Sequence record: MW862804
DNA length: 44,281 nucleotides
Source of the DNA: Escherichia phage UAE_MI-01
Strand: one strand, 5' to 3'
Notes under the pieces: model-generated
Databases searched by the model: none
The model's input: the letters and a program-made list of their open reading frames with translations, nothing else
What the model was told of the DNA's origin: nothing
Position numbers and translations under genes: made by a program
Shown: in pieces, positions 5,749-44,245 of the stretch
How the letters are laid out: each line of letters starts with the position of its first letter
Position numbering within the stretch: the stretch's first letter is position 1

Positions 5749-5903
5749 GCTATCCCCCTGGGATTGTGGCAGAGCAGGCCACCCGCTCGACTTCACGCTT
5801 CTAATATTATCAGCGATAAAAATAATCGCAAAATTCGCTTGCGTTGCGGGAATTGGTTGCGCTATATTGGTTGCACACCAACAGAGATATGAAGGAAAAC
5901 AAG

Positions 5904-6257: not shown

Positions 6258-7042
6258 ATGAGACTGACGAAAGACATTAAAAATCAGATCCTGGCTAACA
6301 TCCTGCGCGACCACGAAATAGCGACCGAAGCCAAACAAATCATGATGGACTCGCGCGATCTGGCTTATGCCATTACGCTGGACTGTATGCCATTACGCTG
6401 GACTGTATGCCAGAAGGCATTCGCACGTTCGCAGCGCTCCGCGAGCATATCAAGGCAATTCGCGACGACCAGTCGCAGATGTACGGCGTCAGCGTATACA
6501 CCAACAAGGCGACGTATAGTTATAACTCCGACCGCCCGAAAGGTATCGGCAGCGTTTACAACGCCACTTTCGAAATCAACGCAGGCGGAAATGTTCGCAC
6601 CTTGTCATTGAGTGGAGACGGTCGCCAATACCGCGTGCATCGCGGGTACTGGGAAGAGAAATATATGAATAAGCTCGCGCCCGATCTCGGCGATATCGTT
6701 CCGGGGTTCGAGACAGTTATGCTGGCTTCAGTGTGCGAAGTGGACGAGGACGGGAAAGCGCTGCCGATATATCTCCCACGCGGTCGCGTAGACTACCCGG
6801 CGGACCATGACTTCTGTAAGCGCCTGGACCGCAACGACAAGGCCCGTAGCGAGTTGCGCGCGAAGTATGATGCGTTCAGACTCACCGTTACCGGTGTACT
6901 GGACCTGCACAATACTGACAAGAAGCTGATTAAAGCATGGCCTGAAGTTGAGCAATTCATCCCATACCCGGACAAGCCAAAATCCACGGCGGTGGCGCTG
7001 GATGTGAAAACACTCAACGAGATTTGCGGCATTCCGCGCTAA
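6258..7042 (+). pseudogene. Hypothetical moron gene split by a 20-bp tandem duplication (frames rejoin if one copy is removed)
   Basis: ORF 6258..6611 and ORF 6407..7042 are in different frames; the 20-mer TATGCCATTACGCTGGACTG occurs twice in tandem (6366..6405); deleting one copy restores one continuous ORF of about 255 codons. Confidence 0.6.
6366..6410 (+). repeat. Perfect 20-bp tandem duplication (2.25 copies) inside a coding region
   Basis: Direct reading. Confidence 0.9.
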
Positions 7043-12046: not shown

Positions 12047-12176
12047 GATATAAGCCCTTTTGTGCATATGCGCCGACCATCGGCAACATAGGAGACGGCC
12101 CTGCCATCTAACGGGGATTATAACAGGCACAAAAAAGCCCACCAAATCGGCAGGCTGGGGTGGTTACAGCGCTGGG

Positions 12177-15652: not shown

Positions 15653-15862
15653 TTAAAGTTTAACCGTGCCGCACTTGTCGCACACGATGATTTCTTGCTG
15701 GTGGTCGTGGTTGCATTCGCTTTCGTCGATCTCGTCGGCGGTAAGGTTGTCGCCGTCACATACCGTAGCGATGCCGTAATGCTTGTAGTCGTCGTGGCAG
15801 GATTCCAGGTCGATAAACTCCTGCGAGAATCCCTCCATTAGTGTTTTTTGCATTGGTGTCAT
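15653..15862 (-). CDS. Small Cys-rich (zinc-ribbon-like) protein
   Basis: 69 aa; C-terminal CDKC pair plus additional Cys/His; ATGA start/stop coupling with upstream gene. Confidence 0.45.
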   Translation of the reverse strand: MTPMQKTLMEGFSQEFIDLESCHDDYKHYGIATVCDGDNLTADEIDESECNHDHQQEIIVCDKCGTVKL

Positions 15863-16128
15863 TTGCTCAGTCTCCAGTGTTTGCTTACCCGCTCAACGGC
15901 AGGCTTCCGGCGTAATGTAATACGAATGCCAATTGGTTGCAAGGACGTTTTTATGGCTAACCCATGCTCCCTGGCGAACTGGTGCAAGTAGCGAGTCTGC
16001 GTTAATGGCTTCACATCATCGCGGTAGCACCAGAACACAGAATCGCCCTCATTCGCATTCTTAGCCCATATTCGTACGCAATGCAGTGGGATGCTCCACG
16101 AAAGGCGTTTTGCGCGTCTGCGGTCCAT
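15859..16128 (-). CDS. Hypothetical protein
   Basis: 89 aa; tightly packed in operon. Confidence 0.4.
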   Translation of the reverse strand: MDRRRAKRLSWSIPLHCVRIWAKNANEGDSVFWCYRDDVKPLTQTRYLHQFAREHGLAIKTSLQPIGIRITLRRKPAVERVSKHWRLSK

Positions 16129-16137: not shown

Positions 16138-16443
16138 TTATTTCGCAAGCTGGGCGAATAGTTCGCGCTGGGCTTTAATCCGGGCGACGTTTGTCACTGC
16201 TGTCTCACCGATCCCGAAGCGATACGCCAGGCGCTCGCGGGCAAAAGCCATCGCATATTCGCAGATTGCCACGCGCAGCGGTTCTAGTTCGTCCAGGCTG
16301 GCGAACATATCGTCGAACGCGTGCATGATTCCCTGCTGGGCCAGGATGACAACCTGGCGAGCGTCGTCTGCGTTGCCGTCTGTGTGCTTCGCTTCATACA
16401 GCTTCGCCACCGCCATTGTGTAATTCCAGATTAAAGCTCTCAT
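16138..16443 (-). CDS. Hypothetical protein (first gene of the minus-strand operon)
   Basis: ATG 16443 with AAGAGGA RBS; TTGGTTGC motifs upstream. Confidence 0.45.
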   Translation of the reverse strand: MRALIWNYTMAVAKLYEAKHTDGNADDARQVVILAQQGIMHAFDDMFASLDELEPLRVAICEYAMAFARERLAYRFGIGETAVTNVARIKAQRELFAQLAK

Positions 16444-16659
16444 CGTTCAGTCCTCTTGTTGGTGTGCAACCAAAATAGCAGGGTGCCAGGGTGAATGCAA
16501 CCAATATTAATCACGCGTATGAAAAAGTTGATCGCTATCTGCTGTGACTGCAAACTGCATTTCTCACCCTCCATTCTGCAACTCGCATTGGTTGCCTAGT
16601 TCATCGACGACCGCAATCCGCATCATGCTGCCGTGCGTTATGCAATCCTGGATTTTATG

Positions 16660-16850
16660 CAGTCTCAGACGAGGGGGGTGACAGACCCCCCGTCTAGTCT
16701 GAAAGACTGGGGTTTGTCCCGCTTGTCCCGCCCCCCCCCAGGCCGCGTCATCCGTGGGTGGGACGGGGTGCTGTCCCGCTTTGTCCCGCCCCTGGTCTGT
16801 CCCGCTTTTTGTCCCGCTTAGTTTATGCAGTTTTATTGCATAACTATGCA
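16660..16850. repeat. Noncoding module copy B: hairpin, mini-hairpin, GTCCCGC heptamer array (6-7 copies), C9 homopolymer, palindrome TTATGCA-gttttat-TGCATAA at 16823..16843
   Basis: Direct reading; about 85-90% identical to the junction copy over the conserved core. Confidence 0.85.
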
Positions 16851-16902
16851 CTATATTCACACTACACGGCAACCAATGCGACCGCCTAAAAGCCCATAAA
16901 AT

Positions 16903-16983
16903 GGCAACCAATGCGCGCAAAATTTAATCATTTACCGATATGGGAATTCCCATAACGGCAACCAATGCGCGCAAAATTTAATC
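16903..16983. repeat. Two 27-bp direct repeats GGCAACCAATGCGCGCAAAATTTAATC (16903..16929, 16957..16983) flanking a perfect 16-bp palindrome TATGGGAATTCCCATA (16939..16954); third partial copy at 16868..16882
   Basis: Direct reading; lies at and just beyond the 3' end of the primase gene. Confidence 0.8.
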
Positions 16984-19242
16984 TTTTAAATCGTCATCGG
17001 TCGCTGAAAGCGTGATAGGGATATCCGATTTGATGACCAAATTAGACGACCCATAGATGGCCCCGGTGTGCGGATCGGTATAGAAACCTATCACTCCGCG
17101 CTCCACCATATCGTCGATTGCCTTCGTCGAAGTGCCACCTTTTGCGAGTCCCGCCTGGCGGACGATTGCCGATTTACTGAATCCGGTATGGTCCGGGTTA
17201 TCTTCCATCAGTTTTTCCAGTGCCGCATAAAGCACTTTCTCTTTTTCATTGCGCGGTCCGGCGGTGTTCTCTTCCTTAACTGCGGCCTTGCCTGCTGCCT
17301 TCGCCTGTTCGATGGCGAACGGTGCCAGGGCAACCGGTACAAGATACAGCGTCTCATCGCGCGGGGTGGATGCAATCGGCTTGACGTCCCAACCGGCAAC
17401 CACATCTCCGAAGTCTGGCCCGGTGCTGGTGGACTGGTGTGCCTCGAACGCTTCTGACTTGCGGAGATCCACCTTAACTTTGCACTTGAGCAGGACGAAG
17501 CCGCGCGGCGCTTGCTTGATGCCGTTACGTGACTTTTCGTGATACAGGTTCAATTGTCCGGGCTGGTTGTCGTCCGGCTGTTCCAGGAAGAAAGCGGAAT
17601 CGACAGCACCATGCAGCGCGCCGGACCCGCGTGGGGTTCTGCTGCCGTTTGCACCTTTCGCCGGGTGGTGAATGACGCCCGCACTGCCACCTGTGTTTTC
17701 CGCGATGGCCTTCAGAGCTTTGACCACTTCGCCCATATCGCTGGCGTTGTTCTCGTCGAACGGTTTAGCATCGGCGGACCGCAACGCAACCGTCTGGTTG
17801 AGTGAGTCGAACGCCACCAGGCCAACCGGCTCGCCGTTAGCGGTGCGGTTGATAAAGCTGATAACTTCACGCAAGCCAGATTTGCTGGTGATATCCCAGC
17901 CGCGGGATTGCAGATCGATAATGTGCAGCTTGTCCAGGTCGTGCTCGTATTTAATCTGCAATGCTTCTTTACGCTGGTTGGAGGCTTCACCACCTTCCGC
18001 GTCGAAATAGAAGCAATGAGACTGGACGACCTTCGCACCGCCGAACGGGATCCCTGCGGCAACCGCGCCCATTTGGCCCAGCACATAGAAAGACTTACCG
18101 ATATTCGACTCACCCGCCATGTACCAGGTCGATTTAAAGTTAATCAACCCCTCGATAATCGGGTCGTGCTTACTGAACAGCGCGACCGGCTCGTTATCCA
18201 GATCCGCATCGGTGCACACGCCGTATTCTTCGCCGTCGCCAACCGCATCAACAATATGTTCGTATAAGGATTCGACTTCCTCGTCGTCCAGCCCCGGAAG
18301 GATGGCGGCGATTTGCTTGCGCGACATGTTGTGTGGCTCGACGTTCAGGTGGTCCGGGATCCCGATAAGACGCAGCGCCAGGTGCTGGTGTCTGTTCAGT
18401 TCCGAGCAACACTCGTTGCCGGTGTGCATACACTTGAAACGGATCTCGCCATCCTTGACCATAATGGCGGTGGACCCTTCGCCGCTGTGCAGATGTTCGT
18501 TCGGGCACGGCACTTCATAACCGCGACCGGAAGATAACTCCTCGAATCCTGCCTGGAAGCACCAGTCCAGAATGCCGTCTGCCACTGCGTCGTCGCCCTG
18601 GGTCAGTTCGCGGCGGACTTCCTCTTTCTCAACTCCCAGCTTGTCCGCCAGGCGGAGCAGACGACGGACGCGGGCGCGCTTGCCATAGTGGCATTTAATA
18701 ACAGACTGCTGGTGTGGCAGGTACATCAGGCGGTTTGTGTCTTTCGTGCAGTCGTCGAAGTCCACATCTGACAGGCCCAGTTGGTGTAATAGCGCATACT
18801 GGACACGGCCCAGGTCTTCAGCCGGTACAGGCTTGTCAGTGAGTACCAGGAATCGAGCGCAACGCGTGCCGCCTTTCAGTGGGTGACGGTCGCCGGTTGT
18901 GGTGTGGAAGACGTGCTCCAGCCCCGCGTCAGTGAACGCCTTACGGCAACGGCGTAAAGTGCGGGTGTCGGTGCGGTCAATATCGAAGAACAGGATCGAG
19001 CGGTCCACCGCACTGGTCTTACGACGCAATCCGTCACTGGTATACGCCACGATGCCGTCGGCCTTACGCTTGCGGCGCGCATACTCGGCTTTATCTTCTG
19101 TCTTGTTGATATGCACCGAGGAGATTTCTTTCGCATCTTTGATAAATTCGAAAAATTCATCGGTGGTCATCTGGAAGTTTTCCGCCCTGGCTTTTTCGCC
19201 TTTTTTAGCGGGTCTTGTTACAGCGAATTTAATTAAGCTCAT
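16978..19242 (-). CDS. Bifunctional primase-polymerase / P-loop (RecA/DnaB-like) replicative NTPase
   Basis: 754 aa; N-terminal FFDIDR-type primase-polymerase motif, Cys/His zinc-binding cluster, Walker A GESNIGKS in C-terminal half. Confidence 0.7.
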   Translation of the reverse strand: MSLIKFAVTRPAKKGEKARAENFQMTTDEFFEFIKDAKEISSVHINKTEDKAEYARRKRKADGIVAYTSDGLRRKTSAVDRSILFFDIDRTDTRTLRRCRKAFTDAGLEHVFHTTTGDRHPLKGGTRCARFLVLTDKPVPAEDLGRVQYALLHQLGLSDVDFDDCTKDTNRLMYLPHQQSVIKCHYGKRARVRRLLRLADKLGVEKEEVRRELTQGDDAVADGILDWCFQAGFEELSSGRGYEVPCPNEHLHSGEGSTAIMVKDGEIRFKCMHTGNECCSELNRHQHLALRLIGIPDHLNVEPHNMSRKQIAAILPGLDDEEVESLYEHIVDAVGDGEEYGVCTDADLDNEPVALFSKHDPIIEGLINFKSTWYMAGESNIGKSFYVLGQMGAVAAGIPFGGAKVVQSHCFYFDAEGGEASNQRKEALQIKYEHDLDKLHIIDLQSRGWDITSKSGLREVISFINRTANGEPVGLVAFDSLNQTVALRSADAKPFDENNASDMGEVVKALKAIAENTGGSAGVIHHPAKGANGSRTPRGSGALHGAVDSAFFLEQPDDNQPGQLNLYHEKSRNGIKQAPRGFVLLKCKVKVDLRKSEAFEAHQSTSTGPDFGDVVAGWDVKPIASTPRDETLYLVPVALAPFAIEQAKAAGKAAVKEENTAGPRNEKEKVLYAALEKLMEDNPDHTGFSKSAIVRQAGLAKGGTSTKAIDDMVERGVIGFYTDPHTGAIYGSSNLVIKSDIPITLSATDDDLKD

Positions 19243-19252: not shown

Positions 19253-19582
19253 TTACTTAGAAGTTTTATTATTGCGTACCCAGGAGCGCACTGTGCTCTG
19301 ATTAATCCCAGTCAACTCGGCAATCATCGCCCATGATTTGCCCTCGGCGCGCAAACGGATAACCTGCTTTTTGTATTCTTCCATTTCTTCATTGTGCTTC
19401 TGCAGCTTGCTTGCTGCCGTGCCGTTGAGCAATTCCAGCCTGGCGCGTAATTCTTTTTCTACACTGCGCAGACGTTCAATCTCAAATAGCACCGCCCCCA
19501 CGGCATCGGTATACGCCCATGACCGGCTTGTCTCACTGCAAACAGTCTTCGTTAACATTTCGATTGCGTCGTTGATATTCAT
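19253..19582 (-). CDS. HTH DNA-binding regulator (putative)
   Basis: 109 aa; coiled-coil middle, C-terminal HTH-like segment (KSWAMIAELTGINQSTVRSWVRN); palindrome GTTGGT-taatga-ACCAAC 14 nt upstream of its start. Confidence 0.5.
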   Translation of the reverse strand: MNINDAIEMLTKTVCSETSRSWAYTDAVGAVLFEIERLRSVEKELRARLELLNGTAASKLQKHNEEMEEYKKQVIRLRAEGKSWAMIAELTGINQSTVRSWVRNNKTSK

Positions 19583-19759
19583 TGCTCTGCCCTCAGTTGG
19601 TTAATGACCAACGAAACTACACCTAAAACCGAAAGGTGTCAAATCCTTTGGATATTGAAACGGGCGCGCACGCGTGTAATAATAATTCCCGTCTCATTGT
19701 CTCTTATTGGTTAGCGCCGTCGCATTTTGCCTCGGCGCTTTTTTTTTTGAAATTAGTTG

Positions 19760-19788
19760 TTGACTCCCTTCTGCAACCAATCTAATAT
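19760..19788 (+). promoter_or_regulatory. Sigma70-like early promoter (TTGACT-17 bp-TAATAT) with CAACCAAT motif in the spacer and a T10 tract upstream
   Basis: Direct reading of the -35/-10 hexamers and spacing. Confidence 0.55.
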
Positions 19789-19984
19789 TCACTCCGTCGA
19801 CAGGATGCAGGACGCAAACTGGAGAGGGGCAACGCAGGGGCCGGATCGAAGTGTCAGGATTCCCAACCGTGATTATATAACCAGGTCCACTACCCGAAAG
19901 GGAGAACGCGTAACCTGGCAATATGTTAAGGCCACCGACGAAGTTTACTGCCGACACCTAAACTTAACCAATCGGAGATACACC

Positions 19985-20527
19985 ATGTTTGAACAAATCG
20001 TAAACCTGATCACTCGCGGCGTAGTAGCACTGGAAATCATCGCTAAACATTATGAAACCGTTGGCGCTGCCGTAGACCCAAAAGCAAACGGCACTGCTAA
20101 GAAAGGCAAGGCCAAGCCAGATACTGAAGTCGAAGACGACGACGATCAGGACGAAGTCGAAGATACGCCTAAAACGAAAAAAGGCGCGGCAAAAGAAACC
20201 AAGTCTAAAGGTAAGGCCAAAAAAGAAGTCGTAGAAGATGACGACGACGATGACGCCGATGACGTGAAGCCAGCGAAGGGTAAAAAAGCTCCGGCGAAAG
20301 GCAAAGGCAAGAAAGATGCCGATCCGCTGGCAGAGATGCGCGACGAGATCAAACAGTATGCCGCTATTATCGCTGGTGGTGACGACGACGATGCCAACGA
20401 CGAATTCGACGACCTGCTGGAAGCGTTCGAGATCAAATCAATCGCCAAGCTGGAAGATGACGACGTCGAAGACTTCCACAAAGACCTGAAAGAAATCGTC
20501 GAAACCTATTTCGAATTGGAAGATTAA
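19985..20527 (+). CDS. Highly charged early protein with alternating Lys-rich and Asp/Glu-rich blocks
   Basis: ATG 19985 with GGAGAT RBS; first gene of the plus-strand operon; followed by terminator. Confidence 0.55.
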   Translation: MFEQIVNLITRGVVALEIIAKHYETVGAAVDPKANGTAKKGKAKPDTEVEDDDDQDEVEDTPKTKKGAAKETKSKGKAKKEVVEDDDDDDADDVKPAKGKKAPAKGKGKKDADPLAEMRDEIKQYAAIIAGGDDDDANDEFDDLLEAFEIKSIAKLEDDDVEDFHKDLKEIVETYFELED

Positions 20528-20533
20528 TGTATT

Positions 20534-20561
20534 CCGGCCCGCTAATCTGCGGGCCTCTTTT
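20534..20561 (+). terminator. Rho-independent terminator
   Basis: CCGGCCCGC-taatct-GCGGGCC followed by TCTTTT. Confidence 0.6.
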
Positions 20562-20574
20562 AGAGGACGAGACA

Positions 20575-20826
20575 ATGGCACGATTCACGCTAATCGAGGC
20601 GGTGGATTCCCGCGACCAGCGCCCGTACTATTGGCTATTCGAACGCATCGGCAGCTTTCAGTCACGAGTTGCCGTAATAGATAAACGCCGTAACACCCCC
20701 GCGCAAATTAAGCGCACCACCTTTACTAACCCCGACTTTTATATTTGGGCAGACTCCAATCTGGAATATGTTCGCTTCGCGGTTGCATCCGAAGCAAGAA
20801 CGATTGACCGCTGGGAGACGAAATAA
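20575..20826 (+). CDS. Hypothetical protein
   Basis: ATG 20575 with GAGGA RBS. Confidence 0.45.
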   Translation: MARFTLIEAVDSRDQRPYYWLFERIGSFQSRVAVIDKRRNTPAQIKRTTFTNPDFYIWADSNLEYVRFAVASEARTIDRWETK

Positions 20827-21015
20827 ATGGCTATATTCTTTGTTTTATTTCGTTGCCGTATTACCGGCGATGAGCAACCGGAAATCGTTATGAATCAGAA
20901 CTGGAATTGCTGCTGGATGCAAGCCCGAGGACTGGCGGCTACCATGAACGAAGCCGCGAAGCGGGCTGGGGTTAAACATGAATATTACATTGCTCAGTTT
21001 TCAAGGGTGGAATAA
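20827..21015 (+). CDS. Small hypothetical protein
   Basis: ATG directly after upstream stop; 62 aa. Confidence 0.35.
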   Translation: MAIFFVLFRCRITGDEQPEIVMNQNWNCCWMQARGLAATMNEAAKRAGVKHEYYIAQFSRVE

Positions 21016-22445
21016 TGGCGATTAAACCAAAACGTAAAACGCAATCCGGTAGCAATACGGAACACTCATTACTTGGTCCATCCGGTGCTAAAAAATGGAT
21101 GGGTTGCCCTGCCGCCCTGGTGGTGGAAAAAGATATCCCGAACGAATCCGGGCAAGCCGCGATTAACGGTACGAGTATGCACACCGTATCGGAGGTGGTG
21201 CTAAACCGCATTATCGCCGGTGAGAAGCTGATAACCGCGAAGACGTATAAAGGGTGCTACGTCGAGAACGAAGGCAAGGGGCCAGTAAAGGCACACCCGA
21301 AAGCACCGAAAGGCGGCGTACTGGTCAATGACGACATGGTGAAACAGTGCGACGCGTACATCGACCACTGGCGACCGCTCCTCGAAGTGGCGGAGTTTGT
21401 CCAGCTTGAGATGCGCGCCGATCTGACCCGCGTCCTTCACTCAGGCTACGAGATCGACGGCAACCGGATTAAAACGTTCGGTACTGCCGATATGGTCATG
21501 GTCATGAAAAAGACCGACGGTACGTACATGCTGATTGTTGGCGACCTGAAGACCGGGCGGCATAAGGTCGAGGCAAAAGAAAACAAACAGCTTATGTTGT
21601 ACGCGCTCGGCCTGCTGCGCAAGCTGCAAACCATGTACGACATTACGACCGTTCGCCTGGTTATCTTCCAGCCGTATTGCGGCGGGGCGTCGGAGTGGGA
21701 TATTTCGGTAGAAGCGCTGGAGATATTCGCGAAGTTTGCATCCAAGCGCGCTATTGCCGCACTGGAGGCGTATTCCCGAGGCAAGAAGGGGCTTACACGT
21801 GCCGACTTCCGTCCCAGCGTTGATGCGTGCCAGTGGTGCAGATTTGCGGATCAGTGTAGCGCCAGGGCGAAGGCCGCAATCGATACGATGACACCCCCAA
21901 CGGCAACCGACGAAGACCTGGGCGACGACGTGAGTATTGCGACTGCGGAAGAATGCGCCAACCATGACCGCAATATGACCCGCGAAGCCCGGAAGGCGGC
22001 ACGACGTGCGAAGCGTGGTAAGAAAGAAGCGGCCCCCGGGGCTATGAGCGCGGAGGAACTGCGCAAGGCTTATGAAGGCCTGGACGCAATGCGCCAGCAC
22101 ATCAAAGCTATCGAGTCCGCGGTATTCAAAGCGGTAATGGCGGGTGATGGCGAATCGCTGGGCCTCAAGATGGTCGCCGGTAAGGAAGGGATCCGTAAGT
22201 GGGCGGACGAGAGCGAAGTGATTGAAATCTTCACGAAGGCCCGGATCAAGCGCGATGTGATGTACAAAGAAACATTGCTCAGCCCTACGGATGCCGAGAA
22301 GGTACTGAAGGACGAAAAACCGAAAGTGTGGGCTAAGCTGTGTGATAAAATCACACGCGCGCCAGCTAAACCGGTGTTAGCACCGATCGACGACCCGCGC
22401 CCTGCGTGGTCGGAAGCTACTGACGAGGACTTAAGCAATGAATAA
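21015..22445 (+). CDS. PD-(D/E)xK exonuclease (Cas4/RecB-like, DUF2800-type)
   Basis: D...VGDLKTG motif, C-terminal Cys cluster CQWCRFADQC; position in PolA replication module. Confidence 0.55.
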   Translation: MAIKPKRKTQSGSNTEHSLLGPSGAKKWMGCPAALVVEKDIPNESGQAAINGTSMHTVSEVVLNRIIAGEKLITAKTYKGCYVENEGKGPVKAHPKAPKGGVLVNDDMVKQCDAYIDHWRPLLEVAEFVQLEMRADLTRVLHSGYEIDGNRIKTFGTADMVMVMKKTDGTYMLIVGDLKTGRHKVEAKENKQLMLYALGLLRKLQTMYDITTVRLVIFQPYCGGASEWDISVEALEIFAKFASKRAIAALEAYSRGKKGLTRADFRPSVDACQWCRFADQCSARAKAAIDTMTPPTATDEDLGDDVSIATAEECANHDRNMTREARKAARRAKRGKKEAAPGAMSAEELRKAYEGLDAMRQHIKAIESAVFKAVMAGDGESLGLKMVAGKEGIRKWADESEVIEIFTKARIKRDVMYKETLLSPTDAEKVLKDEKPKVWAKLCDKITRAPAKPVLAPIDDPRPAWSEATDEDLSNE

Positions 22446-22680
22446 AGTATTTGCAATCTTATTGATGTTTTTGCTCGGCGCGCTGGGCTTTATCCTGCAT
22501 TGCGTGCAAGGCGTGTTAATGGTGGCGTGGATGATTCGCCATCCGACCCGCTGGCTGGATGACGGCTATAGCGAAGTTGCCGTCGATTGGGTGGAAAAGA
22601 ACATCGACCGACCGCCGCTAAGCTGGATCGAGAACGCCACCAACTACGTTACCAGAAATCTTTTTAGTGAAAATGCTTGA
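22438..22680 (+). CDS. Small membrane protein
   Basis: 80 aa; two hydrophobic segments; start overlaps upstream stop. Confidence 0.4.
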   Translation: MNKVFAILLMFLLGALGFILHCVQGVLMVAWMIRHPTRWLDDGYSEVAVDWVEKNIDRPPLSWIENATNYVTRNLFSENA

Positions 22681-22770
22681 CCGCTTAGGCGCAACCAAGT
22701 AGATTAGCAACCAAGCCGAACGGGGTGGCTTCCAATAACCCCGATACATGTGAAAATGAGGAATTGGAAA

Positions 22771-23556
22771 ATGGCTAAAGTCAACCTGAAAAATGTGCGC
22801 GTATGTTTCCTGAAAATTTGGGAACGTGATACCCCTAAACAGGACGGACAAAAACCGGCATACCGCGCCGTGATTCTTCTTGATAAAGAAGATCCGCAGG
22901 TGGACAAAGTGGAAGCGGCAGCGCGCGCAGTGCTCACCGACAAGCTGAAATCCGAGAAGAATGCCGATAAGTGGATGGACCGCCACTACGCCCAGGATTC
23001 TAAGGAATGTGCAGTTCGCGACGGCGACGAGCGCGATGAAGTAACCGAAGAATTCGAAGGAATGTTGTACATCAACGCTAAATCGTTCAAACAGCCAAAC
23101 ATCCAAACGTCACTCGGCGAGAAGCAGACCGAACAGGGTCTGACCGTAGAAGGCGACGAAATCGAAGGCCAGGAGATCTACTCCGGTTGTTATTGCAATG
23201 TGTCACTGGATATTTGGGCGTGGAACAACACCAACGGCAAGGGACTCGGTGCTGGACTGCTGGGTTTACGCTTCCGTGATGACGGTGAAGCCTTCGGCGG
23301 TGGCGGATCTTCGTGCTCCGATGAAGACCTGGACAACGACGACGAAGATGAAAGCCCGCGCAAGTCCAAAAAGTCAAAACGTCGTGATGACGATGACGAA
23401 GACGACAAGCCGCGCAAGTCCAAAAAGTCCAAGCGCCGCGATGACGACGATGATGACGAAGACGAGAAACCTCGTAAACGTCGTAAGCCACGCGATGACG
23501 AAGATGATGAGGACGACGACGAAGACGAAGCACCACGCAAACGTCGCCGCCGTTAA
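22771..23556 (+). CDS. ssDNA-binding protein-like (DUF2815-type, putative) with C-terminal basic/acidic repeats
   Basis: ATG 22771 with GAGGAA RBS; synteny between DUF2800-like nuclease and PolA; C-terminus built from 54-63-nt tandem DNA repeats. Confidence 0.4.
   Translation: MAKVNLKNVRVCFLKIWERDTPKQDGQKPAYRAVILLDKEDPQVDKVEAAARAVLTDKLKSEKNADKWMDRHYAQDSKECAVRDGDERDEVTEEFEGMLYINAKSFKQPNIQTSLGEKQTEQGLTVEGDEIEGQEIYSGCYCNVSLDIWAWNNTNGKGLGAGLLGLRFRDDGEAFGGGGSSCSDEDLDNDDEDESPRKSKKSKRRDDDDEDDKPRKSKKSKRRDDDDDDEDEKPRKRRKPRDDEDDEDDDEDEAPRKRRRR
23356..23556 (+). repeat. Imperfect tandem coding repeats (54, 60 and 63 nt) encoding PRKSKKSKRRDDDD(E/D)n units
   Basis: Direct reading. Confidence 0.8.
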
Positions 23557-23574
23557 GGGCAAAGCCCACTATTC

Positions 23575-23597
23575 AAGCCCGCTTAGTGCGGGCTTTT
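23575..23597 (+). terminator. Rho-independent terminator
   Basis: AAGCCCGC-ttagt-GCGGGCTT followed by TTTT. Confidence 0.65.
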
Positions 23598-23614
23598 TAA
23601 TAGGACAATGGAAA

Positions 23615-23785
23615 ATGCGCATTAAAGCCAGCGAAGTAAAAGTCGGAATGCAGGTATGGTCTAAATTGCTGGGCGAGTATTTCACCGTTGCCGAGGTTCG
23701 CAACAACGGCGAGGAGATAACCCTTTCCGACGGTATCTTCTCCATGATCGGCAGCGCCGACGCCGTAGTGAGGATTAAGCAATGA
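23615..23785 (+). CDS. Small hypothetical protein translationally coupled to DNA polymerase
   Basis: ATG 23615 with AGGA RBS; stop overlaps polymerase start (ATGA). Confidence 0.45.
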   Translation: MRIKASEVKVGMQVWSKLLGEYFTVAEVRNNGEEITLSDGIFSMIGSADAVVRIKQ

Positions 23786-26073
23786 AAGACTTTGAACGCC
23801 TGTTTCTCGATACAGAGACATTTAGCGGGGTGGATCTGAAGAAAGCGGGAGCATACGCCTACGCGGAACACCCAACTACTGAGATTATGATTTGCACATA
23901 CGCCATCGACGAGGGCCGCGTGCAGACCTGGGATTGCACCGAATCCCCCACAATGCCGCGTGAACTGCGCAAGGCGCTCCGCCAGGTATCCCGCAAGAAA
24001 GCAAAAATCGTGATGGCTAACGGCCTCCTGTTTGACCGCCTGGTTATTCGCGAGAAGTGGGGCATTGACCTGCCGGTAGGCCAGATCGAAGATACCATGA
24101 TTATGGCCTTTCGCCACGCGCTGCCGGGTAGCCTCGATATGCAATGCCAGGTGCTGGGCGTTGACGCAGAGCACGCGAAGGATAAGGCGGGCAAGGCGCT
24201 GATCAAACGATTCTGTAAGCCAACCCCTAAGACCTACAAAATCCGCCGCTACACGCGCGAGACGCACCCCGAGGAGTGGGCTAAATTCCTGCGCTATGCC
24301 GCGCTTGACATTATAGCGATGAGGGAAGTCTACTGGCGCATACCGGACTGGGGTAACACGCCGAAGGAAGATGAAATCCTGCTTATTGACCAGTTGATCA
24401 ACGACCGCGGCTTCTATGTGGACGTTGACCTGGCGAACGCCGCGATCAAAGCGGTGCAGGCGCATAAGGAAGAATTGAAGGAAGAAGCATGGGAGCGCTT
24501 CGGCGGTAAGCTGACTGGCAATGACTTCCTGCCAGCGCTGCGCGACCTCGCGCCTGCGTTCACAATACACAACGCGCAGAAATCCACGCTTAACGACCTG
24601 CTGGAAGACCCGGACTTCCCCGACGAGGGCAAAGTGCTTATCGAGATGCGCCTCGGTGCATCATCAACGGCATCGACTAAGTACAATCCGCTCGTTAATG
24701 GCTTATCTGCAGATGGTCGCCGTCGTGGGTGTCTCCAGTATGGTGGGGCGAAACGCACGCTACGCTGGGCGGGCAAAGGCTTCCAGCCGCAAAACCTGGC
24801 GCGCGGCGAGTATAGCGACGACCACGAAGGGAAGATTAAGCGCCGTGATGGCGAGAGCGACGTTTCTTTTTGGGTCCGGTCGCACATGCTCACCAACGGC
24901 ATCAACTCCCTGTTACGCGGGACAGCGCACTGGGCGTATGACATATCGAAGTTAACGGCCTCGACCGTTCGCGGGTGCATTATCCCGGCTAAGGGCAAGA
25001 AGTTTGTTGTAGCTGACTATTCTAACGTGGAAGGTCGCGGGCTTGCCTGGATCGCTGGTGAGAAAACCGCGCTAATGGTGTTTAGGGCGGGTCGCGATAT
25101 CTATTGTGAAACTGCCGGTAAGATGTTTGGCCTCGACCCGGAATACATCAAAGCCAACCGAAAAGACTTGCGCCAGATTGGTAAGGCGTGCGAATTGGGG
25201 TTGGGCTATGGTGGCGGCGTTGCAGCGTTCCTGCAGTTTGCTAAAAACCTGGGCCTCGACCTTTACACGATGGCGGACGTCATGAAAGGCACATTCCCCG
25301 ATCACATTTGGGCAGCGGCGAAGCGGGGTTATGAATACGCCCGCATTAACGAAGCGAAGCGCCCGCCGAAGCCTGGCAAGAAGGACGAGCGCCCAACTTA
25401 CATACTGCCGAAAAACGTGTGGTTGACGTGTGACGCGATCAAACGTATGTGGCGTGAGGCCCACCCGAAGACGGTAGCCTTTTGGGCAGAGCTTGAGGAC
25501 GCGGTGTTGTGCGCAATCCGCAATCCGGGCAAAGCATACTGGGCTGGCGCTAACGTTCGCCCGGATGGTAAGAAAGCGCTCAAGATAGTGCGCACGAAGG
25601 CGAAGCATGACCCAACCTTCGACGAGGAGCGCGACGACCCGAACGCGGCGGGGTGGTGGCTTAAAATTGAGTTGCCTTCAGGGCGCATCATGAGCTATCC
25701 CGGCATCGCGCTGTCTGTCACGACCGAGATAGACGAGGACACCGGCAAGAAGCGCACCAGTACCCGCATCAAATACCAGGGCGAGAATCAGACGACGCGC
25801 CAGTGGGGCTTCCAGTATACCTACGGCGGCAAACTGACGGAAAACATCGTACAGGCGCTGTGTCGCGATATCCTCGCGTGGTCCATGCCGGGGGTTGAAG
25901 CCGCGGGCTATGAGATCGTACTGTCAGTGCACGATGAATTGATAACCGAAGTGCCGGATACTGACGACTACACGACCGAGGAGCTATGCGCGCTGATGTG
26001 CGACCTGCCTGTTTGGGCGAAAGGCTTCCCGCTTGCCGCTGAAGGCGACATTATGTACAGGTATAGAAAATAA
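23782..26073 (+). CDS. DNA polymerase, family A, with 3'-5' exonuclease domain
   Basis: Exo I motif LFLDTETFS; polymerase motifs DYSNVEGR (A), RQIGKACELGLGYGGG (B), SVHDE (C). Confidence 0.9.
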   Translation: MKDFERLFLDTETFSGVDLKKAGAYAYAEHPTTEIMICTYAIDEGRVQTWDCTESPTMPRELRKALRQVSRKKAKIVMANGLLFDRLVIREKWGIDLPVGQIEDTMIMAFRHALPGSLDMQCQVLGVDAEHAKDKAGKALIKRFCKPTPKTYKIRRYTRETHPEEWAKFLRYAALDIIAMREVYWRIPDWGNTPKEDEILLIDQLINDRGFYVDVDLANAAIKAVQAHKEELKEEAWERFGGKLTGNDFLPALRDLAPAFTIHNAQKSTLNDLLEDPDFPDEGKVLIEMRLGASSTASTKYNPLVNGLSADGRRRGCLQYGGAKRTLRWAGKGFQPQNLARGEYSDDHEGKIKRRDGESDVSFWVRSHMLTNGINSLLRGTAHWAYDISKLTASTVRGCIIPAKGKKFVVADYSNVEGRGLAWIAGEKTALMVFRAGRDIYCETAGKMFGLDPEYIKANRKDLRQIGKACELGLGYGGGVAAFLQFAKNLGLDLYTMADVMKGTFPDHIWAAAKRGYEYARINEAKRPPKPGKKDERPTYILPKNVWLTCDAIKRMWREAHPKTVAFWAELEDAVLCAIRNPGKAYWAGANVRPDGKKALKIVRTKAKHDPTFDEERDDPNAAGWWLKIELPSGRIMSYPGIALSVTTEIDEDTGKKRTSTRIKYQGENQTTRQWGFQYTYGGKLTENIVQALCRDILAWSMPGVEAAGYEIVLSVHDELITEVPDTDDYTTEELCALMCDLPVWAKGFPLAAEGDIMYRYRK

Positions 26074-26351
26074 TGACCCCCGAAGGCAAGATCCAAAGTC
26101 ACCTTATGAAGCTGGTGAAAGCCGTCGGCGGATTCTGCCGTAAAGTGGCATGGGAGGGGCGCGCGGGAGCGCCCGACCTTATAATCATCATCAACGGCAA
26201 GATAGTTTTCGTCGAAGTGAAGCGCCCAGGCGGTAAACCTAAGCCGCACCAGGTACGAGAACATGAGCGAATGGCCCGCCGCGGTGCGGACGTTCGCGTC
26301 ATAGACAACATAGCCGACTGTGATTTATTGGTTGCTGAATTGGTCGCGTAG
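26073..26351 (+). CDS. VRR-NUC domain nuclease
   Basis: 92 aa; ...IVFVEVKRPGGKPKPHQ... signature; ATGA coupling to polymerase. Confidence 0.65.
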   Translation: MTPEGKIQSHLMKLVKAVGGFCRKVAWEGRAGAPDLIIIINGKIVFVEVKRPGGKPKPHQVREHERMARRGADVRVIDNIADCDLLVAELVA

Positions 26352-26391
26352 CGGTATAGTGTGCCGGTTAGCCATATCGAGGATTTTAGAG

Positions 26392-26565
26392 ATGATTGAA
26401 GAAAAACGTTGCAGTAATTGCGGCTGCGTTAAACCGCTATCCCAGTTCCATAAATACACCGGGAAGACTGCGCGAAGCCCGGACGGGTATCGGGCAGAGT
26501 GCAAATCATGCCGCAATAAAAAAGAGCGCGAACGGCAGCGCCGCTACCGCGCAGAGCAAAAATAA
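26392..26565 (+). CDS. Small zinc-finger protein
   Basis: CSNCGC ... CKSC pairs followed by basic tail; GAGGA RBS. Confidence 0.45.
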   Translation: MIEEKRCSNCGCVKPLSQFHKYTGKTARSPDGYRAECKSCRNKKERERQRRYRAEQK

Positions 26566-26572
26566 TTAATAC

Positions 26573-26596
26573 GGCGGGCTTGTCCCGCCATTTTTG
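26573..26596 (+). terminator. Rho-independent terminator (stem contains a GTCCCGC heptamer)
   Basis: GGCGGGC-ttgt-CCCGCC followed by ATTTTT. Confidence 0.55.
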
Positions 26597-26608
26597 GGAG
26601 ACATGACG

Positions 26609-26827
26609 ATGAAAGAACATTACCGACTCACCAAGCTGGGCGAATGTAAACCGGGCGATCGCGTATGGCTTATTGCTGGCATTAATTCCCCGCTGCCGTT
26701 GACGGTGTGCTGGCAGAAGTTTAAGCGCTTCCGGGCCACCGGTGTCCATATCGGACACGCCACCAACTACGACGCCACAAAAAGGAACTGGAACAGTGAG
26801 ACAGAAGTCTGGAAAAAGGCGGAATAA
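26609..26827 (+). CDS. Hypothetical protein
   Basis: ATG 26609, GGGAG RBS 8 nt upstream. Confidence 0.4.
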   Translation: MKEHYRLTKLGECKPGDRVWLIAGINSPLPLTVCWQKFKRFRATGVHIGHATNYDATKRNWNSETEVWKKAE

Positions 26828-26831
26828 AGAA

Positions 26832-28256
26832 ATGGCAAGATTCCGACGTCGCGAATATCAGAAATTGATAACCGCGTTCATCCTCAAGCATAAGCGCTGC
26901 AATATATGGGCGACAATGGGGTCGGGTAAAACCGGCGCGACTATGTGGGCGCTGAATAAAATGTTCCAGACTGGCATCCTGTCCAGCCAGGAGGACCGCG
27001 TACTGGTGCTGGCCCCGCTTCGCGTTGCGTCGGGCACATGGCCCCCGGAGCAAGAAAAATGGCGCTTCCCCGCCCTGCTGGTAGTAGACGGCACCGGACC
27101 AGAGAAGGACCGCATCGCTGCGCTTGAGAGCGACGCTAACGTGGTTTGTGTTAACTATGATGTGGTTGAGTGGCTGGTTGACTATTGCGGCGACGAGTGG
27201 CCCTTTACGGTCGTTGTTGCCGATGAATCCACTAAGCTGAAAGGCTACCGCAGCAAGCAGGGCAGCAAGCGCGCCCGCGCCCTGGCCGCGATCGCGCATA
27301 AGCACGTCAAGCGCTGGATTAACCTGACCGGCACACCCGCGCCAAATGGCTTGAAAGACTTATGGGGTCAGACGTGGTTTGTCGACGGCGGCGAACGCCT
27401 CGGCAGTAGCTATAAGGCATTCACAGACCGCTGGTTTATTAGCAAGCCGGTTAAGCCTGGCAGCTTCACTATGCAGCACGCTCCGCTAAAGAACTCCGAG
27501 AAAGAGATACAACAACGTCTGTCAGATGTATCCCTCACCGTTGACGCGGCTGAATACTTCGGGTGCGACAAGCCAATCTATACGCCGGTTGTTGTGGACC
27601 TGCCGAAGAAAGCCCGCAAGATTTACGACCAGTTTGAAAGCGAGCTATTTGCCGAACTGGAAAGCGGGACAGTGGAAGCGGCGAACGCGGCATCGAAGAC
27701 AATTAAGTGCCTTCAGCTTGCTTCGGGGGCCGTGTATAAAGTCGACGAAGACGGCGAGCGCACCGATGAATGGGTGAAAATTCACGACGCAAAGCTGGAC
27801 GCGCTGGAAAGTATCGTGGAAGAGTTGAACGGTGCGCCGTTGCTCGTTGCGTATCAGTACAAGCATGACCTGGCACGTCTTAAGAAGAAATTTCCGCACG
27901 GCGTTGCGTTGGGTAAAGGAAAGCAGGGCAATAAGGATATGGAAGCATGGAACAGGGGCGAGATCCCCATCATGTTTGCACACCCGGCATCGGCGGGCCA
28001 CGGCCTTAACTTGCAGGACGGCGGTCATCACCTGGCAATCTTCTCCGACACCTGGAACTTTGAACACTTTTCGCAGATCGTCGAACGTATCGGGCCGGTT
28101 CGCCAGATGCAAGCCGGGCACCCTCGTCCGGTATTCGTCTACATTATCCAGGCGCGTGGCACACTTGACGAACTTGTCGCCGAGCGGCGCGACAGTAAGC
28201 GGGATATTCAGGACGACTTGATGGAATACATGAAAGCTAAAAAGGCGCGTAAATGA
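26832..28256 (+). CDS. SNF2/DEAD-box superfamily II helicase
   Basis: Walker A MGSGKTGAT, DEAD-like VVADESTKLK, C-terminal helicase domain; start chosen at MARFRR to avoid an 86-nt overlap. Confidence 0.8.
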   Translation: MARFRRREYQKLITAFILKHKRCNIWATMGSGKTGATMWALNKMFQTGILSSQEDRVLVLAPLRVASGTWPPEQEKWRFPALLVVDGTGPEKDRIAALESDANVVCVNYDVVEWLVDYCGDEWPFTVVVADESTKLKGYRSKQGSKRARALAAIAHKHVKRWINLTGTPAPNGLKDLWGQTWFVDGGERLGSSYKAFTDRWFISKPVKPGSFTMQHAPLKNSEKEIQQRLSDVSLTVDAAEYFGCDKPIYTPVVVDLPKKARKIYDQFESELFAELESGTVEAANAASKTIKCLQLASGAVYKVDEDGERTDEWVKIHDAKLDALESIVEELNGAPLLVAYQYKHDLARLKKKFPHGVALGKGKQGNKDMEAWNRGEIPIMFAHPASAGHGLNLQDGGHHLAIFSDTWNFEHFSQIVERIGPVRQMQAGHPRPVFVYIIQARGTLDELVAERRDSKRDIQDDLMEYMKAKKARK

Positions 28257-28948: not shown

Positions 28949-29268
28949 ATACTACATTCGAGGCCATTGATTTTTCGGTTGCAATGACTAACCAGTTATT
29001 CTCCTACGACAGCAAGACCGGCGTCATTCGCCTGAAGTCCACCGGATGCAAGATCGGCAACCTTAACACTGCCGATGGCGGTACTCGTATCGAATGCAAC
29101 GGCAAGACGCTATCCGGCGCACGCGTGGCGTGGATTATTGAGACTGGCAATACAATCCCTCCAGGCTATGCCGTAGTGTGCCGTCAACGCACACCAGGCC
29201 ATTACGGCAACCGCATTAGTAACCTGTATCTGGTAGACGTTGCGCGCGACCCAAATTTTTATTCGTAA
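28945..29268 (+). CDS. Hypothetical protein
   Basis: ATGA coupling; 107 aa. Confidence 0.45.
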   Translation: MNTTFEAIDFSVAMTNQLFSYDSKTGVIRLKSTGCKIGNLNTADGGTRIECNGKTLSGARVAWIIETGNTIPPGYAVVCRQRTPGHYGNRISNLYLVDVARDPNFYS

Positions 29269-29349
29269 ATTGGTTGCATAACCGTATTGGTTGCATTATA
29301 TTGAGGGTGTCCGGTTTGGACGCCCTTTTTAATACCCGGAGACAGTGAT

Positions 29350-30734: not shown

Positions 30735-31201
30735 AACTACTGATTTGTGACCTGGATGGCGTTATTAACGGTTCAAGCGATGCGCGTGCCGACCTGGTGC
30801 CGGGGATAAAAACGAAATCCACCTTCTGGGCGAAGTGGCACAAAGCGCATATACGCGAAGATCTGAACATGGATATGCTGCCGCTGTTGCGCATGTATAA
30901 AGCGCAAGGCTTCGAGATCGCGTATCTGACAAACCGGCAGCGAGAATGTTGGGACACCACCGCCGAACAACTGGAAGTATTCCCGACAGGCCGGTTGTTT
31001 ATGCGCCACATGCTGGACGATACCCCGCCGCCAGAGTTTAAGGCGTGCGCCGTGTTCAAAATGGTCTGCTATGCGGACGTGTCGGAACTGGTCATCATTG
31101 AAGATTGCGAGAAGAACATCGCGGCAATTCGTCGGGCGTGCGGAGATTTGGTCCCGAAAATTTATGCGATAAACGTTGCAAAATTCACTTGCAACCAATA
31201 G
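30731..31201 (+). CDS. HAD-superfamily hydrolase (nucleotidase/phosphatase-like)
   Basis: N-terminal LICDLDGVI matches HAD motif I (DxDG). Confidence 0.55.
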   Translation: MKLLICDLDGVINGSSDARADLVPGIKTKSTFWAKWHKAHIREDLNMDMLPLLRMYKAQGFEIAYLTNRQRECWDTTAEQLEVFPTGRLFMRHMLDDTPPPEFKACAVFKMVCYADVSELVIIEDCEKNIAAIRRACGDLVPKIYAINVAKFTCNQ

Positions 31202-31264
31202 GTTGGTTGCACTATAGTAAACGTGTCGGGGGCAATACTGCCCCCTCACTAAAAGGGTAATACT

Positions 31265-31756: not shown

Positions 31757-31798
31757 TTCTAATCGCGGGCTTCGGCCCGCATCAATGAGGACCACACA

Positions 31799-34018: not shown

Positions 34019-34098
34019 AGCTGAATCCTCATAAATTGGTTGCAATCCAGGTCGAGCGGTGTAATACTAAAACTCAACCAAATATAGGGGATGATACC

Positions 34099-34317
34099 AT
34101 GAAAACCTTAATTATGATTTGTGCGGTTCTTTTGTCCGGTTGCGCCAACATGCCGTCTAAAATCTGCGACGCGACATATGTTAATAGCGGCATGGAATAC
34201 TCGGTCCCGGTGTTCGGTGTTGCCGATTTTAGTGGGCATAAAATGCTGCGGGCGGGCTACCCGTTCAACTTCCGGTATGTTTCGGTAGACCACTTCAAAA
34301 GCACCACTTGCAAATAA
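34099..34317 (+). CDS. Small outer-membrane lipoprotein, Cor/Llp-like superinfection exclusion candidate
   Basis: Signal peptide with lipobox LLSGC; 72 aa; divergently oriented inside the tail fibre region; own RBS and terminator. Confidence 0.45.
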   Translation: MKTLIMICAVLLSGCANMPSKICDATYVNSGMEYSVPVFGVADFSGHKMLRAGYPFNFRYVSVDHFKSTTCK

Positions 34318-39375: not shown

Positions 39376-40112
39376 TGCCATTCTGTGATATCCCACGGTA
39401 AGTCTTTGTGACGCACCCATTTAACCACATTGTCGCGGAAAAATCCTGCCCGGAAGGGGACCACGCTCGACAGACTGCCGTAGATATGGTGTAGGAGTTG
39501 GTTGCCCGGAAGGAATATCCCGGCGTGGTTAGGCACTGGCGCGCTAATCTGCATGATGACCATCGCCCCCGGCGTATTCTCCTCGCATTCCCTGAAGCCC
39601 GCGCCGTACCAGTTATCCATATACAGATTTTCGCCTGTCTCCCACCAGTTATATGGCACGCGGAAGTCTGGCAGGTTTACGCCCTGCTTTTTGTGCCATG
39701 CCATGACGAGGCCGTAACAGTCAGTAACCCCGAGAACAAATCGGCGGCCTACCAGCGGCGGGTCTTCCGGGTCGATCTCGATAAAGTCGCCATATTCGTT
39801 AGTGATGGTCCAGACGACGCCGCTGCCGTTGCATCCGTTAACGTCTCCCAGTGATGGGGTAAGCTCGCGCTGACCCGGGTGTGAGTGGACTACGCGAACG
39901 ACGTCGCCCATATCCTCGGCATCCATCCAGGCCATATCACTAATAGTAAACGCGTCTTTGCGTGAGCGCACGCCGGTCGGGTCTTCGAATACGTTCTGAC
40001 ATGGTACGAATACTTGCTTGCGACCCACCATGACTACCAACCCACAGGCTTCTTCCGGCAGACATGCCGCAACGTGCGCGGCGATATCGCTTTTAACCTT
40101 TTTCGTTAACAT
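39372..40112 (-). CDS. Tail assembly protein K-like (JAB/MPN metalloprotease plus NlpC/P60-like domain)
   Basis: JAMM-type motif VVHSHPGQ...S..D; synteny between L and I. Confidence 0.75.
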   Translation of the reverse strand: MLTKKVKSDIAAHVAACLPEEACGLVVMVGRKQVFVPCQNVFEDPTGVRSRKDAFTISDMAWMDAEDMGDVVRVVHSHPGQRELTPSLGDVNGCNGSGVVWTITNEYGDFIEIDPEDPPLVGRRFVLGVTDCYGLVMAWHKKQGVNLPDFRVPYNWWETGENLYMDNWYGAGFRECEENTPGAMVIMQISAPVPNHAGIFLPGNQLLHHIYGSLSSVVPFRAGFFRDNVVKWVRHKDLPWDITEWQ

Positions 40113-44177: not shown

Positions 44178-44245
44178 TATGCAGTCCCCCTTTTTATGCA
44201 GTTGCCGTCGGTTATTGTATCAGCGAATTTAAAACAAACCTTATT

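Follow-up and report, generated by a model that had tools for sequence, protein, structure and literature searches.

The 44,281-nucleotide stretch of DNA analyzed here (sequence record MW862804, Escherichia phage UAE_MI-01; hereafter the window, always at its full length) carries an 8-bp word, TTGGTTGC, or GCAACCAA when inverted, which we found embedded in the core of about ten predicted sigma70-type promoters, essentially all of those of the early and middle genes. We propose, with confidence that is about evenly balanced, that this word serves as operator for a global transcription regulator encoded by Dhillonvirus-type phages, namely the 109-residue helix-turn-helix (HTH) protein encoded at 19253..19582 on the minus strand (HTH109), which would act mainly by promoter occlusion. 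As far as the sequence can tell, this is an undescribed example of a familiar type, a phage global regulator with promoter-embedded operators. An 8-bp word shared by about 10 early and middle promoters, paired with a single candidate regulator, makes a testable map of temporal control, and the two may offer a compact orthogonal operator/regulator pair for phage engineering. Dhillonviruses are common and widely used coliphages, present in the BASEL collection, in defence-system studies and among therapy candidates. A literature search covering Dhillonvirus/HK578 promoters, the transcription programme, TTGGTTGC, phage transcription start maps and HTH109 function returned nothing relevant.

The window amounts to a complete Dhillonvirus-type coliphage genome, circularly permuted, with 96.5% identity to phage NHEP3 over 4 kb, and it matched 178 phage records. 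The gene map was the NHEP3 annotation carried over by tblastn, and by that map 7.9% of the genome is non-coding. The transferred map is wrong in places (an open reading frame (ORF) laid over an iteron element, the strand of a lipoprotein gene), and the overlap of several annotated small ORFs with regulatory or origin elements is a correction to the annotation. A minus-strand block runs from about 19582 down to 1 with the HTH gene, the helicase-primase gene, small genes and the lysis, packaging, head and tail genes; the early and replication genes follow on the plus strand (19985 to 32374), and further tail genes occupy the minus strand from 44177 to 32402. No integrase, partition, CI-like or lysogeny genes were present in the transferred annotation, and the phage is a virulent phage of E. 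coli. No Rfam family was found within the window at the gathering threshold. Comparisons were made across six Dhillonvirus genomes and four syntenic metagenomic relatives (L006-L009) that are ~72% identical in alignable DNA (the distant relatives), and all counts from ten sequences refer to these. All promoters and transcription starts given below are predicted.

The word occurs 19 times in the window, spread over about 34 kb, and 100 dinucleotide-preserving shuffles averaged 1.96 copies, the highest count being 5 and none reaching 19. It is also sharply defined, since 19 exact copies stand against 42 one-mismatch variants where the chance ratio would be 1:24. Twelve of the 19 copies are fully non-coding (binomial p 1.8e-9), rising to as many as 16 when copies at gene ends and in doubtful small ORFs are included (p 1.8e-15). 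The first-pass annotation had described a motif family recurring in intergenic DNA and had expected it to be enriched there relative to coding sequence, and both points were borne out (19 copies versus about 2 expected, 12-16 of them in the 7.9% of non-coding DNA). Its coordinates were right within 1 nt at 5853/5867, 16466/16497, 19773, 22691/22707, 29270/29287, 31191/31203 and 34036. To these we add exact copies at 15933, 16588, 16869, 26328 and 39498 and a variant, TTGGTCGC, at 26340.

Alignment of 63 non-redundant sites from the ten sequences showed that A is favoured at position -1 and a base other than T at +8, with nothing further out. As the flanks hold no information, the unit is an asymmetric 8-10-mer, (A)TTGGTTGC(V), and not a palindrome. 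The sites had earlier been described as often palindromic, and some are; the word itself is asymmetric and palindromic arrangements are a minority (31191/31203, TTGGT-N5-ACCAA at 5867 and 16466, and 19596-19612). Paired copies lie 9, 12, 13, 14, 16, 17, 31 or 35 bp apart, with no fixed phasing. The sequence CTCATTGTC showed no enrichment. The k-mer screen ranked two ACGGCA[AG]C words above the motif, ACGGCAAC (28 copies versus 2.1 expected) and ACGGCAGC (24 copies); these are scattered on coding strands as Asp/Asn-Gly-Asn/Ser codons and reflect codon usage, not a signal. A methyltransferase or homing-endonuclease target was ruled out because TTGGTTGC is confined to promoters at fixed offsets. 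When a viral collection was scanned for paired copies, the matches listed were mostly collagen-like or tail-fibre coding tandem repeats.

Each of the six Dhillonvirus genomes contains 18-20 copies of TTGGTTGC, and in the distant relatives, where contexts and geometry are the same, stretches of 10-20 kb contain 10-13. Conservation in related phages, which the first-pass annotation had proposed to check, was found in all of them, with an invariant 8-mer. Region alignments of the six Dhillonvirus genomes resolved footprints in which the 8-mer and the -10 hexamer are invariant and the bases toward the -35 hexamer or between copies vary, even with insertions and deletions. Purifying selection on the word is strong throughout the clade.

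All copies associated with promoters fall within sigma70-like promoters, each of which has 1 to 3 of them, placed over the -35 hexamer, in the spacer or at +1. Hexamers resembling -10 elements peaked at offsets +27, +10 and -4 from direct copies and at +9/+10 and -6/-7 from inverted copies (background expectation 0.2-1.4 per offset). Where direct copies cover the -35 region (29270, 26328, 16497, 34036), the TTGC of the word is itself the -35 hexamer. The copies at 29270, 26328 and 16497 start exactly 27 nt before the -10, as do their counterparts in relatives, and other copies are in the spacer, at +1 or inverted. Direct copies in the spacer end 2 nt before the -10 at 5853, 29287 and 31203, and those at +1 (5867, 16466) overlap its end. 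In the distant relatives the -35 copy stays 27 nt from the -10 and the second copy floats at 10, 11 or 14. Orientation follows promoter class: in the ten sequences all 30 copies in promoters with a TTGAC -35 are inverted, and promoters with a TTGC -35 have 63 direct and 19 inverted copies. Counted by independent promoter families (3 versus 7) the split remained significant (Fisher p = 0.008). Translation starts had been named in the first pass as a further class of target; their nearness is a by-product of promoters lying close to genes. The earlier proposal that the motif is the binding site of a phage regulator is partly supported; a predicted site of this kind agrees with a word that is compact, invariant, footprinted and set at fixed offsets inside core promoters in both orientations.

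The following promoters belong to the TTGAC class. The early rightward promoter P_R2 (TTGACT-17-TAATAT, 19760..19788, plus strand) has an inverted copy at 19773-19780, stopping 2 nt short of the -10, which confirms a site noticed in the first pass within the spacer of this promoter. The P_R2 spacer 5' of the copy varies and has insertions and deletions, and GCAACCAATCTA is invariant. Upstream of the SSB and DNA polymerase genes, TTGACC-17-TAGATT (22677..22714, plus strand) carries two inverted copies, one in the spacer (22691-22698) and one at +1 (22707-22714). In the distant relatives the early promoter spacer is filled by two tandem inverted copies 9 bp apart, in the arrangement TTGAC-GCAACCAA-c-GCAACCAA-tc-TAGTAT.

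Among the TTGC promoters, TTGCTG-17-TATAGT upstream of a Lar-like gene (26328..26360, plus strand) has a direct copy over the -35 (26328-26335) that starts 27 nt before the -10; its spacer contains the conserved variant TTGGTCGC at 26340-26347. Two direct copies are present in TTGCAT-17-TATATT (29270..29302, plus strand), over the -35 (29270-29277) and in the spacer (29287-29294); the bases between them vary among phages and both copies are kept. The promoter at 31189..31218 (plus strand, TTGCAA-18-TATAGT) takes its -35 from an inverted copy (31191-31198) and has a direct copy in the spacer (31203-31210); the 4-nt gap between them reads tagg in the window and ccta in phage Gluttony. The promoter at 34036..34068 (plus strand, TTGCAA-17-AATACT preceded by TG) has a direct copy over the -35 at 34036-34043. 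An accessory cassette inside the head genes is preceded by TTGCGT-18-TATATT (5839..5883, plus strand), with direct copies in the spacer (5853-5860) and at +1 (5867-5874, within TTGGTTGCACACCAACA). On the minus strand, TTGCAT-17-TATTTT (16457..16504), upstream of gene 16443..16138, has direct copies over the -35 (16497-16504) and at +1 (16466-16473). The 5839 and 31189 promoters share upstream sequence, and the regions at 5867 and 16466 share downstream sequence.

The remaining copies have other surroundings. Three direct copies of the TTGGTTGCC subtype, at 16869, 16904 and 16958 (16869..16965, minus strand), lie between the helicase-primase gene and an iteron element; two of them sit in 35-nt repeats 54 bp apart (16900-16988), and the proximal copy starts 21 nt before a TATAGT. 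The first-pass annotation had reported 27-bp repeats at 16903..16983; repeats are indeed there, as two copies of 35 nt. Other Dhillonviruses have two of these three copies, and TTGGTTGCC is kept at this place in relatives. At its distal end the iteron element has a conserved copy (16588..16595, plus strand), which falls within an annotated ORF that is doubtful. The copy at 15933..15940 (plus strand), inside gene 15859..16128, is conserved in 5 relatives; the minus strand there reads TTGCAA-17-TACATT, which may be an internal promoter. The copy inside a minor tail gene at 39498..39505 (plus strand) has no promoter context and is probably a chance occurrence.

Homology among Dhillonvirus genomes often ends just 3' of motif promoters (5883, 16443, 29340), with different cargo behind the same promoter; at 5839..5883 it stops right after CACCAACA in some genomes. 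With the cargo swapped behind an unchanged promoter, the conserved motif promoters coincide with mosaic junctions.

The candidate regulator heads the leftward operon, which also holds the helicase-primase gene and is driven by P_L (TTGACA-17-TAGTTT, 19614..19642, minus strand, read from the sequence). In relatives P_L reads TTGAC(A/G)-17-TATATT or TAGTAT. At about +1 to +17 of P_L lies the palindrome GTTGGT-taatg-ACCAAC (19596..19612), which contains TTGGTTAA at 19597-19604, a copy matching the word at 6/8 positions. In L006-L009 a perfect GCAACCAA lies 9 nt after the -10 of P_L and about 14 nt before the ATG, between the -10 and the ribosome-binding site, and in the window and the Gluttony-type phages the copy has decayed to TTAACCAA inside the palindrome. 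The palindrome recorded in the first pass is present, with taatg between its arms where taatga had been given, and a perfect copy takes the equivalent place in the distant relatives; in the window it holds only the 6/8 copy. Two further proposed sites, at 19704 (TTGGTTAGC) and 19971 (AACCAAT), did not hold up, both being 6/8 matches that are not conserved as the motif in relatives.

HTH109 begins with a hypervariable N-terminus, continues in a long helix and ends in an HTH (residues ~68-107). Among 20 small proteins scanned (10 from the early region and 10 others) it was the sole DNA binder recognisable by Pfam, scoring above the cut-offs for HTH_23, HTH_28 and Sigma70_r4_2 (27.9 bits versus a cut-off of 25.7). 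The AlphaFold2 model (predicted local distance difference test 88) has helices at residues 3-15, 21-79 (59 residues), 84-91 and 95-107. In Foldseek comparisons the last 35-45 residues superposed at about 1 Å on HTH domains of LuxR/GerE/NarL, DeoR and resolvase proteins; no significant full-length analogue was found, and none of the solved structures is a sequence relative. Homologues, in 153 phage records, were confined to this clade, and a profile search for distant ones returned 33 protein clusters, all from the clade as well. Residues 47-106, comprising a LELLNGTAASKLxKHN segment and the HTH, are almost invariant in 24 family members, and allele classes differ in the N-terminal ~46 residues. 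In HK578-type alleles the N-terminal half is replaced and overall identity falls below 50%, with the HTH core kept but carrying more substitutions. The first pass had pointed to this protein as the binder; it is the best candidate for this predicted role, being the sole recognisable DNA binder among the scanned proteins and having an HTH as invariant as the motif.

Over the segment encoding the N-terminus (19445-19582) at least three unrelated allele classes, including a 40-residue longer HK578 type, are shuffled among phages that are otherwise ~90-95% identical, and the C-terminal 60 residues are frozen. This pattern suggests that a surface for partner binding or oligomerisation is under diversifying selection or is exchanged as a module. 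Database labels for HTH109 (transposase, resolvase, Gam inhibitor) are probably wrong; the PHROGs label "transposase" derives from HTH similarity alone. A serine recombinase or transposase was rejected, as the HTH alone matches, no catalytic domain is present, and the likeness to resolvase is limited to the E-helix and HTH and is not significant. An extracytoplasmic function factor of the sigma-70 family was likewise rejected: the region 4 HTH is there, but the protein has no region 2 match and consists of 109 residues with one long helix and the HTH. A preprint confirms the HTH109 operon and groups gp45 with replication initiation, assigning it no function.

A second repeated sequence near the helicase-primase gene had to be weighed as a target of the HTH. 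Directly 3' of that gene, at 16650-16845 on the minus strand and overlapping an annotated 102-residue ORF, is an element of ~190 nt composed of a TTATGCA-N7-TGCATAA hairpin, 4-6 direct GCGGGACA octamers and a long hairpin CAGTCTTTCAGACTAGACGGGG...CCCCTCGTCTGAGACTG, with the TTGGTTGCC copies alongside. A second copy of the element wraps the ends of the window (1-290 into 44210-44281). The first hairpin has its loop in either orientation (gttttat or ataaaac), with a flip seen from one copy of the element to the other and also from phage to phage. Judged by its layout, the pair looks like an iteron origin and a second cis site; the ori and crr of P4 are a comparable pairing. Relatives keep the scaffold but not always the iteron word: the window shares GCGGGACA with L008 and the five Dhillonvirus genomes, L006 and L007 have GGTGCCA(A), and L009 has GTGTGGCA. 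TTGGTTGC is unchanged in relatives, including the copies that flank the iteron element. The word TTGGTTGC was rejected as a replication-origin iteron, being dispersed and invariant, and the GCGGGACA arrays fit that description instead. HTH109 was rejected as the iteron binder, since the iterons change between relatives and the HTH does not. In the distant relatives the C-terminal half of HTH109 is 83-87% identical, like the DNA polymerase, and the adjacent helicase-primase is 66-69% identical. With HTH and TTGGTTGC both invariant and the iterons variable, the HTH would be matched to the promoter word, and the variable iterons to the more divergent helicase-primase. This argument for the promoter word over the iterons is circumstantial.

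If HTH109 is the regulator, it would be made early from the consensus promoter P_L and would probably dimerise or oligomerise through its 59-residue helix, one C-terminal HTH domain reading each copy of TTGGTTGC; the mixed spacings and the tandem copies 9 bp apart fit independent recognition of sites. As the sites overlap elements contacted by RNA polymerase (the -35, the spacer by the -10, and +1), occupancy would mainly block the polymerase. The outcome would be feedback shut-off of the early and replication operons, including the HTH109 operon itself in most lineages, with the late extended -10 promoters, which have no TTGGTTGC, staying free.

Several points weigh against this proposal. The motif and the HTH are both invariant, hence there is no true co-variation of one with the other. 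The strict 27-nt geometry at the -35 and the consistently direct orientation in weak -35 promoters look more like activation, as does the copy at 16869, which has a -10 and no usable -35. HK578-type phages have no copy at P_L and 19-20 copies elsewhere, so autoregulation is not universal. The binder could instead be a host factor or another of the small early proteins whose fold is not recognised. The transcription starts are predictions.

The strongest competitor, which we regard as distinctly less likely, is that HTH109 is a dual or activating regulator that assists or replaces -35 recognition at TTGC middle promoters through direct copies and represses TTGAC early promoters through inverted ones, giving an early-to-middle switch in the manner of T4 MotA boxes or of orientation-dependent monomeric activators. 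The orientation rule speaks for it, with inverted copies throughout the TTGAC promoters and direct copies at -27, -10/-11/-14 and +4 in TTGC promoters, together with the -35 distance that distant relatives keep while the second copy floats, the HTH that passes the Sigma70_r4_2 threshold, and the 16869 copy. Copies that abut the -10 or cover +1, however, occupy positions typical of repression, and the 27-nt spacing is explained too if the TTGC of the word simply serves as the -35. The shared orientation may reflect descent of duplicated promoters (5839/31189 and 5867/16466), and no MotA- or AsiA-like protein was detected by Pfam among the 20 small proteins. A more specific and somewhat less probable version has HTH109 bind as a monomer per site, as an orientation-dependent dual regulator that reprograms transcription in a virulent siphovirus independently of MotA and AsiA, with the TTGGTTGCC copies that flank the iteron origin also coupling transcription to replication initiation. 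Equally doubtful is the corresponding division of labour, in which inverted copies would bring about early shut-off and direct copies would recruit or reposition host RNA polymerase at -35-deficient middle promoters.

We consider it unlikely, more so than any form of dual regulation, that TTGGTTGC is bound by another early phage protein of unrecognised fold or by a host DNA-binding protein. Neither Pfam nor PHROGs assigns a function to most of the small early proteins, the HK578-type allele with its replaced N-terminal half and no P_L copy goes along with a full set of copies elsewhere, and a conserved host factor would likewise give an invariant word across phages. Most of these small proteins, however, are not conserved in the distant relatives that keep the motif, whereas the HTH of HTH109 is, and we know of no E. 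coli factor with TTGGTTGC as its site.

That the word has no dedicated binder and is part of a promoter cassette spread by duplication and recombination, with TTGC as the -35 and a recombination linker at module junctions, is very improbable; a number of the promoters are clear paralogues and homology between genomes ends directly behind them, but the word takes three positions relative to the -10 and either orientation, stays the same where the bases beside it diverge, and occurs in spacers of promoters that have a TTGAC -35 of their own. There is just as little to recommend an element acting in RNA, in which +1 copies form hairpins in 5' untranslated regions (TTGGT-N5-ACCAA) or pair with a P_R1 transcript carrying UUGGUUAGC and so control translation: three +1 palindromes lie near ribosome-binding sites, a short terminated transcript is predicted between P_R1 and P_R2, and this transcript has 8 nt complementary to the region before the ribosome-binding site of the first early gene, yet most copies are upstream of predicted starts and hence untranscribed from their own promoter, neither 19704 nor 19971 is conserved, and the stems are merely 5 bp.

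The proposed promoter occlusion by HTH109 can be set beside several known systems. The middle promoters of T4, which like the phage here is virulent and has no RNA polymerase of its own, use a MotA box with sigma appropriation by MotA and AsiA. The T4 box stands in for the -35, or overlaps it, at a set spacing from a sigma70-type -10, and the direct copies 27 nt before the -10 may be its counterpart; unlike in T4, Pfam detected no MotA or AsiA homologue in the scanned proteins, and copies are also found in spacers, at +1, inverted, and in promoters with a consensus -35. Lambda Cro and Mu Ner are small early HTH proteins with few palindromic operators at one control region. The window shares with them a small HTH gene beside divergent early promoters, with sites that overlap those promoters and, in most lineages, the leader of the HTH gene itself, but it has about 16 asymmetric sites at about 10 promoters genome-wide. 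The last ~35-45 residues of HTH109 resemble LuxR/GerE, sigma region 4 and resolvase HTHs, by superposition at about 1 Å or by Pfam score, but the protein lacks a receiver or ligand domain, a sigma region 2 and a recombinase catalytic domain.

The C1 repressor of P1 has 22 operators with a 17-bp asymmetric consensus, ATTGCTCTAATAAATTT (PMC8546580). Both systems have many dispersed copies of one asymmetric site that control, or would control, several operons. P1 is temperate and C1 is its immunity repressor, whereas the phage here has no annotated lysogeny genes, a site of 8-10 bp at three defined core-promoter positions, and a 109-residue HTH protein without detected similarity to C1. The L5-type repressor (gp71) recognizes 20-30 asymmetric 13-bp sites in short intergenic spaces, some of which are true operators within promoters (PMC6550527). 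Dispersed asymmetric sites in promoters and short intergenic spaces are common to both. The L5 sites, in contrast, are mostly outside promoters, face one direction and block elongation, and those described here are almost all in core promoters and occur in both orientations; L5 motifs co-vary with the repressors between subclusters, and here the motif and the HTH are frozen; and L5 is temperate where this phage is virulent. For both repressors the comparison is indirect, the scans of HTH109 having matched generic HTH families only, with no direct comparison to the C1 or gp71 sequences.

Further features were seen in the divergent early control region. A second rightward promoter, P_R1 (TTGAAA-17-AATAAT), lies within 19655-19749, back-to-back with P_L. 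About 30 nt after it is a strong terminator hairpin (z = -3.2) with a T-run, implying a transcript of ~55 nt, and the layout of a 'gtctcattgtc' start and a terminator is kept in the distant relatives. Between P_R2 and the first early gene is a leader of ~170 nt (19790-19960), nearly base-identical in five Dhillonvirus genomes and L009; CHD5UKE2 and L006-L008 lack it. It shares the reading frame of the gene that follows, and the NHEP3 annotation treats it as coding. The RNA of the 190-nt leader was not unusually stable (z = +0.5) and had no Rfam match.

The gaps of the late region have no exact copy of TTGGTTGC in their promoters. Minus-strand late promoters at ~14640, ~13360 and ~990 have an extended -10 (gTGaTAtAnT), and in front of terS lies TTGGTG-17-TATAAT, overlapped by a terminator (12100-12140). 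Two of the extended -10 promoters are directly followed by terminator-like hairpins before the next gene, a layout that may reflect attenuation or antitermination control.

The 34036 promoter drives a plus-strand lipoprotein gene at 34099..34317, antisense to the tail genes. This gene encodes a 72-residue lipoprotein (MKTLIMICAVLLSGC...) and adjoins the tail-fibre gene; NHEP3 has two small opposite-strand ORFs at this place, and relatives annotate a Cor/lipoprotein gene there. The product is probably a Cor/Llp-like superinfection-exclusion protein.

Finally, a perfect 20-bp tandem duplication, TATGCCATTACGCTGGACTG (2.3 copies, 6366-6412), frameshifts a gene with an Nmad5 domain (PF18757), which is split in the window into 6258..6611 and 6407..7042 and is intact (270 residues) in NHEP3.

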